DNA of 64,000 nt from a virus: the IMG/VR virus record IMGVR_UViG_3300001199_000005, positions 1 to 64,000 of that record; one strand, 5' to 3'. A program made the translations under genes and the position numbers. A model generated the notes under the pieces. The model searched no databases, was not told the DNA's origin, and saw only the letters and a program-made list of their open reading frames with translations. Of the stretch, positions 20,042 to 20,313 are shown piece by piece (the stretch's first letter is position 1; every line of letters begins with the position of its first letter).

Positions 20042-20313
20042 AAAATTTATAGAGTGTGCTGTTACGCCAAAGATTATTGGTCCTTTCAGTCTGTCCGCCC
20101 TCGCAACCTTGTTTCCGTACTAACTTTCCTTCACTTATTATCTACAATCCAGCTATATAATAAGTTCTTCAGCATTTAGTCTGGTCTGATTTACCAATAC
20201 CCTAATACAAGGATATACAAGATTCTATCAGATGAATTTACTTGTGGTCACACGCGCCTATTCTCACTCCTTAGATGGTGGCTGCTACCAAGCCTACATC
20301 CTCTATAAATTTT
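20042..20313 (-). ncRNA. Structured RNA resembling the 23S rRNA L11-binding domain (H43/H44) with a ~200-nt insertion
   Basis: GAGGAUGUAGGCUUGGUAGCAGCCACCAUCUAAGGAG ... GGCGUAACAGCACACUC, closed by a perfect 13-bp terminal stem. Confidence 0.7.

Follow-up and report, generated by a model that had tools for sequence, protein, structure and literature searches.

An uncultured phage of 153 kb carries, on the minus strand of its genome, a predicted non-coding RNA gene of 272 bases (20313-20042) that reproduces the GTPase-associated centre (GAC) of bacterial 23S rRNA as a free-standing domain, closed by a stem of its own and opened at a single point by an inserted arm. The phage is crAss-related, and the 272-nt element is present in a single copy across its IMG/VR record of 152,878 bp, the first 64,000 nucleotides of which constitute the stretch of DNA analysed here (the window). 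Elements of the same design recur in other viral contigs, and the family, its mimicry of the rRNA at the level of the fold and its anatomy can be considered established, while we infer its expression, its processing, its binding partners and its benefit to the phage. With moderate confidence, we propose that the RNA is a stable, trans-acting molecule that would adopt the GAC fold, be released by the enzymes of tRNA processing and serve as a decoy of the uL11/GTPase-associated site.

Anatomy of the element and its match to 23S rRNA

The GAC comprises the top of helix H42 together with H43 and H44 (positions 1051-1108 in E. coli), and is the minimal domain that binds uL11 and thiostrepton. An earlier note on this DNA had quoted a minus-strand sequence resembling this domain, and the sequence is indeed found at 20313-20042, as is the perfect closing stem of 13 bp described with it: 20313-20301 and 20054-20042 are complementary throughout, with 0 mismatches. 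Inside the stem lie one segment of 35 nt (20300-20266) and another of 13 nt (20067-20055), with 198 nt between them. For the comparison of these halves with rRNA we have used real 23S rRNAs, namely 119 GAC segments (1051-1108; 33 distinct) drawn from 120 loci in bacterial genomes. When the window insert is removed and the comparison is made over positions 1056-1103, 42 of 48 positions agree with real 23S rRNA, and the assignment of both halves to H43/H44 of the GAC is thereby upheld; the six differences are A1061, G1067, U1069, C1082, G1086 and A1101. Excision of the 198 nt at 20265-20068 recreates the native U1090/G1091 junction, GAGU/GCG, exactly.

All matches in the bacterial genome scan, at 120 loci, fell within true and uninterrupted 23S rRNA genes. 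GAGU stands directly before the canonical GCGUAAYAGC in 117 of these, and the remaining three have a substitution in the GCGUAAYAGC motif and no insert. Given that many bacterial 23S rRNAs read an unbroken GAGU/GCG, the family is best described as the native domain with an insertion placed exactly between U1090 and G1091. The scan had been aimed at prophage copies; it yielded contiguous 23S only, and is uninformative on prophages.

The element in the window is itself no part of a genuine 23S rRNA gene, as it is flanked by an RNA ligase gene and a tRNA-like element and has G at position 1067. This position is A in all 33 distinct real 23S sequences, and G in nine of the 42 family members and in the window, while U1069 is found in the window member only among those 42. 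In H43 and the junction, 1067 and 1069 are the only positions at which the window departs from the family consensus, and its 1067 loop is the most divergent of the compared set; A1095, which is invariant in the family, is present. A metagenome scan for the G1067/U1069 variant returned five chance matches and no relative of the window member. The z score of the minimum free energy (MFE) for the whole element is -1.88. Coordinates of the individual features are collected in Table 1.

Table 1. The GAC-like element and adjoining features, in window coordinates.
Feature	Position	Strand	Remarks and basis
Closing stem, 5' strand	20301..20313	-	Replaces H42; last pair is G1055-C1104; overlaps the ligase stop codon by 2 nt
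H43-like hairpin, 23S 1056-1081 (1067 or thiostrepton loop)	20275..20300	-	A1061, G1067, U1069; compared with 33 real 23S sequences and 42 family members
Junction segment, 1082-1090	20266..20274	-	C1082-G1086 pair around UAA, then GAGU ending at U1090
Variable arm, 194 nt, between U1090 and G1091	20072..20265	-	Pairing of arm ends in the family
Conserved linker UUUG, from arm to G1091	20068..20071	-	Linker statistics of 38 members
H44-like hairpin, 3' part, 1091-1103 (1095 loop); A1101 at 20057	20055..20067	-	Conservation in 42 members
Closing stem, 3' strand	20042..20054	-	13-bp complementarity and family covariation
tRNA-like element, 10 nt downstream of the mimic	19905..20032	-	Fold, z -2.75
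RNA ligase gene, directly upstream	20312..21556	-	PHROG 968, E 1.3e-28; Pfam RNA_ligase, E 1.9e-5 (just under the curated cut-off)

The family, its covariation and its conservation

A search of viral contigs with the pattern GGCTTNGNAGCAGCCANCAT matched 73 loci, of which 57 contain both halves with an insert, six contain just a 5' half, which lies at a contig end or for which no 3' partner was found, nine are chance matches in coding sequence and one is a true 23S gene (L066). The 57 loci of split design reduce to 41 distinct sequences, with 37 non-redundant types of insert, and every one of them has a closing stem of its own, of differing sequence. A search for both halves at variable spacing, which the earlier note had put forward as a check, is thus answered by 57 further loci that carry both halves and a closing stem. 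As these loci share the split design and differ in their closing stems and inserts, chance is excluded as an explanation at the level of the family. Cultured carriers include phages of Pseudomonas, Aeromonas, Erwinia, Serratia, Xanthomonas and Cronobacter (e.g. Pseudomonas phage pf16, Serratia phage BF, Cronobacter phage GAP32, Aeromonas phage 4_4572 and Xanthomonas phage XacN1), in whose GenBank records the element is unannotated. Cultured phages gave no BLASTN match at E 1e-5 when queried with the window element; the carriers among them were recovered with a consensus-like family member as the query. The member from Cronobacter phage GAP32 (L025; of equal length to JN882285) has GAGU and A1101, whereas the enterobacterial-type 23S of L066 has GAAA and U1101, which argues that the family is not a series of recent captures, each from its own host. 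Rfam 15 has no match on the element, either in the window (at the gathering threshold and at E<=10) or at 13 family loci, and a full-text search of the literature found the family undescribed; as far as these sources reach, the element belongs to no characterised family, and a free-standing, near-exact copy of a functional rRNA domain is likewise undescribed in them.

The paired regions of the element covary. In an alignment of 18 members, 89.7% of pairing cells are complementary as against 68.6% in shuffles (0 of 500 shuffles reached the observed value), and controls in which the partner strand was slid pair at 30-52%. Changes on both sides were observed for 11 of the 12 closing-stem pairs and for 4 of the 4 arm-closing pairs in this alignment, and the G1055-C1104 pair is kept in 18 of the 18. 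That a non-rRNA stem stands in place of H42 and that structure is under selection, as had been suggested from the window, is therefore borne out by this covariation and by 41 other distinct members. Within the rRNA-like part, the 1082-1086 pair covaries as well (U-A in 21, C-G in 15 and A-U in one), and positions 1090 and 1101, which form U.U in real GAGU-type 23S, are U-A in 39 members and C-G in two, with A1101 present in 40 of 42. The exchange of U1090-A1101 for C1090-G1101 indicates that H44 is held together across the point of insertion, and it follows from this continuity that the GAC fold is accessible to the unspliced RNA, with the arm directed outwards.

Conservation must be read with the search in mind, since the pattern fixed positions 1062-1081 with the exception of 1067, 1069 and 1078, and invariance at the fixed positions, being imposed by the pattern, carries no meaning. 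GCGUA and AGC, the H44 part, were outside the pattern and are nonetheless invariant in 42 of 42 members. Outside the pattern, conservation reaches 90% or more, with the residue of real 23S, at 1057-1060, 1083-1085, 1087-1095, 1098-1100 and 1102-1103. Conservation of an rRNA grade at the junction and in both loops points to the same fold and, presumably, to at least one ligand in common with the ribosomal domain.

The high identity to rRNA could also be accounted for if a non-functional piece of a host 23S rRNA gene had simply been captured by the phage. In every member, however, the flanks are not rRNA and pair as a covarying stem, the family's A1101 and its insertion are absent from the 119 real 23S segments, and the LSU model RF02541 has no match anywhere in the phage record at a threshold as lax as E<=10. 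The family comparison refutes such a capture, to which we assign a negligible probability.

The inserted arm and the genomic setting

The stretch of roughly 200 nt said in the earlier note to split the domain does so (198 nt), but it is more accurately described, after the family, as an arm with a short closing stem, for which the window shows weak pairing, followed by a conserved UUUG linker. Throughout the family the insertion site is constant, always after position 1090, and the 3-8 nt at either end of the arm are mutually paired. Among the 38 non-redundant members the insertion ends in UUUG in 32, in UUUA in five and in UUU in one, and the arm and linker together span 40-319 nt across the family. 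In the window the closing of the arm is weak, consisting in the family register of a G-C and an A-U pair followed by mismatches, while an alternative register, GAGA/UCUU, takes in part of the linker.

Such placement, exactly between residues that are native neighbours (U1090 and G1091), after a U and with a terminal G in the 32 members just mentioned, would suit a self-splicing group I intron, and the helix-closed form resembles the intervening sequences excised by RNase III; in either case the product would be a ligated GAC hairpin of 74 nt. The window insert does contain CAGACUAAAUG, an 11-mer resembling the group I R element, and other putative group I introns occur in the phage (a candidate lies at 45225-45594). 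Against splicing, inserts of 40-80 nt are too short for ribozymes, five members end in A, and the insert ends pair mutually, a pairing for which group I introns have no need. H44 is moreover continuous across the insertion, as judged from the covariation at 1090 and 1101. U20266 and G20068 are present in the window, but on inspection there is no P1 guide with a G.U pair, and the Rfam model Intron_gpI (RF00028) has no match on 19600-20700 at E<=10, nor on the element in a search of the whole record. We accordingly consider removal of the insert to be improbable overall; group I identity is rejected on the grounds of the short inserts, the terminal A, the paired ends, the lack of a P1 and the lack of an Rfam match, and excision by RNase III, as in the 23S intervening sequences, is possible. 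The candidate at 45225-45594 (minus strand) is a sub-threshold match to RF00028 (26 bits, E 4.8e-4).

The window arm on its own folds no better than shuffles (MFE z -0.58), and scans of viral contigs and metagenomes found no homologue of it; an exact scan of viral contigs for a window insert motif gave three chance matches, all in coding sequence. Comparison of the inserts with full-length 23S gave top scores no better than those of shuffles, a 14-nt match to the sarcin-ricin loop (SRL) included, and as such the arms, apart from the two halves, are not demonstrably rRNA-derived.

Several arms display features of their own. Hairpins with an SRL core are found in two of them, at L055:2459-2485 (minus strand), where the core AGUACGAGAGGA is exact, and at L036:8416-8442 (plus strand), with AGUACAGAAGGA, and the flanking stems of the two differ by compensatory changes. 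A recurrent motif near the 3' end of the arm, made up of CACCCC, a 3-bp hairpin and GGUAAGG, is present in 7-9 of 38 members (L011, L012, L018, L039, L056, L061 and L079); the third pair of its hairpin covaries (G.U/A-U/U-A), and GUGCGAAAUGC and GUGAUGUGCUG are common to a subset of these arms, which may represent one subfamily with a conserved second domain. The arm of L015 holds, at 14257-14272 (minus strand), a second H44-like piece, GGGUUAAUAGCUCACC, with the rRNA-type U1101, which may be the remnant of a duplication.

A simple decoy does not explain the conserved UUU(G/A) linker or the large arms. In the main rival to the decoy we propose, the working part of the RNA is the arm, which differs between phages, and the GAC copy serves only as a handle by which uL11 is bound and the arm stabilised, localised or delivered. 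The range of arm lengths, with sequences unrelated between members, the recurrence of sub-motifs (the CACCCC-type hairpin and, in two members, the SRL-like hairpin) and the invariance of the insertion site and linker are all in keeping with it. Conversely, the 40-nt arm of L008 is too small for much cargo, the GAC part is far more constrained than the arms and the window arm has no structural signal. We judge it to be rather unlikely.

The setting of the element bears on how the RNA might be released. The gene directly preceding it in the window is an RNA ligase gene, as the earlier note had it, encoding 414 aa; the closing stem begins within its stop codon (20312-20314), and the two are probably co-transcribed. 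RNA ligase homologues are found near the element at three of 38 unrelated loci, with BLASTP placing homologues within ~2 kb of it in L008 and L046, and no conserved neighbouring protein beyond the RNA ligase was found among the 38. In four viral contigs that encode an RNA ligase 38-39% identical to that of the window, the element is absent both downstream of the gene and elsewhere in the records, which are 26-61% complete.

Association with tRNA genes is more common: a tRNA or tmRNA gene lies no more than 300 nt from the element in 18 of 38 members, all tRNAs within 3 kb of the 38 members share the element's strand, and about ten members have a tRNA directly against the closing stem, on one side or on both. 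The element of Pseudomonas phage pf16 occupies the unannotated gap between tRNA-Asn and tRNA-Pro, and that of Serratia phage BF lies in an unannotated intergenic gap. This tRNA-array setting argues for a discrete RNA that is freed by tRNA-processing enzymes. Phage tmRNA genes were seen in two of the arrays, one (L022:8864-9133, plus strand) situated 196 nt downstream of the mimic on the same strand, and the other at L069:209-583 (minus strand).

The window has no tRNA gene near the element. The tRNA-like element downstream (20032-19905) has a 7-bp acceptor-type stem (CAGUAGC/GCUGCUG), a canonical GGUUCGAGUCC T-arm and no recognised anticodon arm, together with a 12-bp AU-rich hairpin bearing a CACGUG loop and a 6-bp hairpin. 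Neither ARAGORN nor Rfam called 19905-20032 a tRNA; by analogy with the members in which a true tRNA gene adjoins the closing stem, it probably directs RNase P/Z to the 3' end of the mimic. A sigma-70 promoter signal above that of shuffles and a terminator-like site were both looked for and not found, and a listing of sequencing runs returned one groundwater DNA run with the locus and no RNA run. Downstream of the RNA pair lies a gene for a cyclic-phosphate-processing receiver-domain protein (18885-19337, minus strand; PF20274, E 7e-20), and two genes upstream of the RNA ligase is one for a PHROG 'phosphoheptose isomerase'-type protein (22090-22473, minus strand; E 7e-33), which together suggest a neighbourhood concerned with RNA end processing.

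The proximity of the element to the ligase gene raises a further alternative, namely that it acts in cis, either as a 3' stabiliser or terminator of the ligase mRNA or as a uL11-binding leader of the downstream ORF. The stem that starts within the stop codon, the U-run that follows it and the start of the next ORF at 19877 would suit such an arrangement. Most family members, however, lie between tRNA genes with no adjacent mRNA, no terminator-like site was found and the distant RNA ligase relatives lack the element, all of which render a cis role very improbable.

Proposed role and relation to known systems

The 58-nt rRNA domain is known to bind uL11, which is thus the obvious candidate partner. 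In the decoy model that we favour, transcription of the RNA would follow on from that of the RNA ligase gene, and the enzymes of tRNA processing would release it at the neighbouring tRNA-like element. It would then present H43, H44 and their junction in a domain closed by a generic stem, with the variable arm leaving between U1090 and G1091, and would act in trans as a decoy of the ribosomal GAC. We expect such an RNA to bind host uL11 and, with or through uL11, a protein that recognises the uL11/H43-H44 surface, for which a GAC-directed toxin or defence enzyme, RelA and a translational GTPase are candidates. The earlier note had similarly put forward uL11/uL10, translational GTPases, RelA or ribotoxins as possible partners. 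The phage record contains no uL11, bL12 or RelA/SpoT gene, and a partner of this kind would therefore be a host protein.

A1067 is important for contacts with factors and with thiopeptides. Its replacement by G in nine of 42 members and in the window argues that full factor docking is not under selection, and the window member, with G1067 and its unique U1069, may bind differently. The toxin Tre23 ADP-ribosylates H44 at 1095-1098 (PMC8661411), and as toxins directed at the GAC thus exist, a decoy role fits the tRNA-array and RNA-repair neighbourhoods in which the family is found.

A broader variant, which we put forward tentatively and with low confidence, is that the RNA constitutes a miniature factor-docking site away from the ribosome, formed by the GAC and sometimes by an SRL-like arm hairpin in addition, and that it traps or mis-activates proteins which read this site, be they ribosome-directed immune effectors or toxins, RelA or translational GTPases. 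If true, it would be to rRNA what the decoy and replacement tRNAs carried by phages against tRNA-targeting defences are to tRNA. Should the decoy indeed bind uL11 or GAC-directed enzymes, it would amount to a new viral way to manipulate or protect translation, and would direct attention to host systems by which the stalk base is attacked or sensed. The question is directly testable, given that the GAC domain is a classic, well-behaved RNA-protein model and that the gene is present in cultured phages.

Genes for tRNAs, tmRNA and some ribosomal proteins are familiar from phage genomes, and mimicry of rRNA by the leaders of ribosomal protein mRNAs is a known principle. What appears to be new is a virus-encoded copy of an rRNA domain with a conserved insertion site, for which we propose action in trans. 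In comparison with the bacterial 23S GAC, H43, the 1082-1090 junction and H44 keep their order and, very nearly, their sequence, the 1082-1086 pair is kept through covariation and A1095 is invariant. The phage RNA departs from it in being a stand-alone gene with an arbitrary stem for H42, in the arm and UUU(G/A) at 1090/1091, in A1101 for U1101 and in leaving A1067 unfixed.

The leaders of ribosomal protein mRNAs (e.g. the L10 leader, RF00557) are similarly RNAs that imitate the site of a stalk-base protein off the ribosome. Those leaders, however, are cis-regulatory, stand upstream of ribosomal protein operons and are loose structural mimics, whereas the phage RNA is a near-exact copy with no ribosomal protein gene nearby and no Rfam match. 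With phage tRNA/tmRNA arrays and the tRNA-mimicking Y RNAs (YrlA) it shares the character of a phage-encoded copy or mimic of a translation RNA that lies among tRNA genes and probably owes its maturation to the enzymes of tRNA processing; unlike these, it copies an rRNA domain and cannot simply replace its cellular counterpart. The intervening sequences of 23S rRNA (helices 25 and 45; RNase III) are likewise helix-closed insertions of ~100 nt within a native rRNA helix, and the phage RNA differs from them in the site of insertion, 1090/1091 in H44, and in its conserved single-stranded linker. Last, Tre23 (PMC8661411) and the thiopeptides recognise the very H43/H44 surface that the phage RNA would display.
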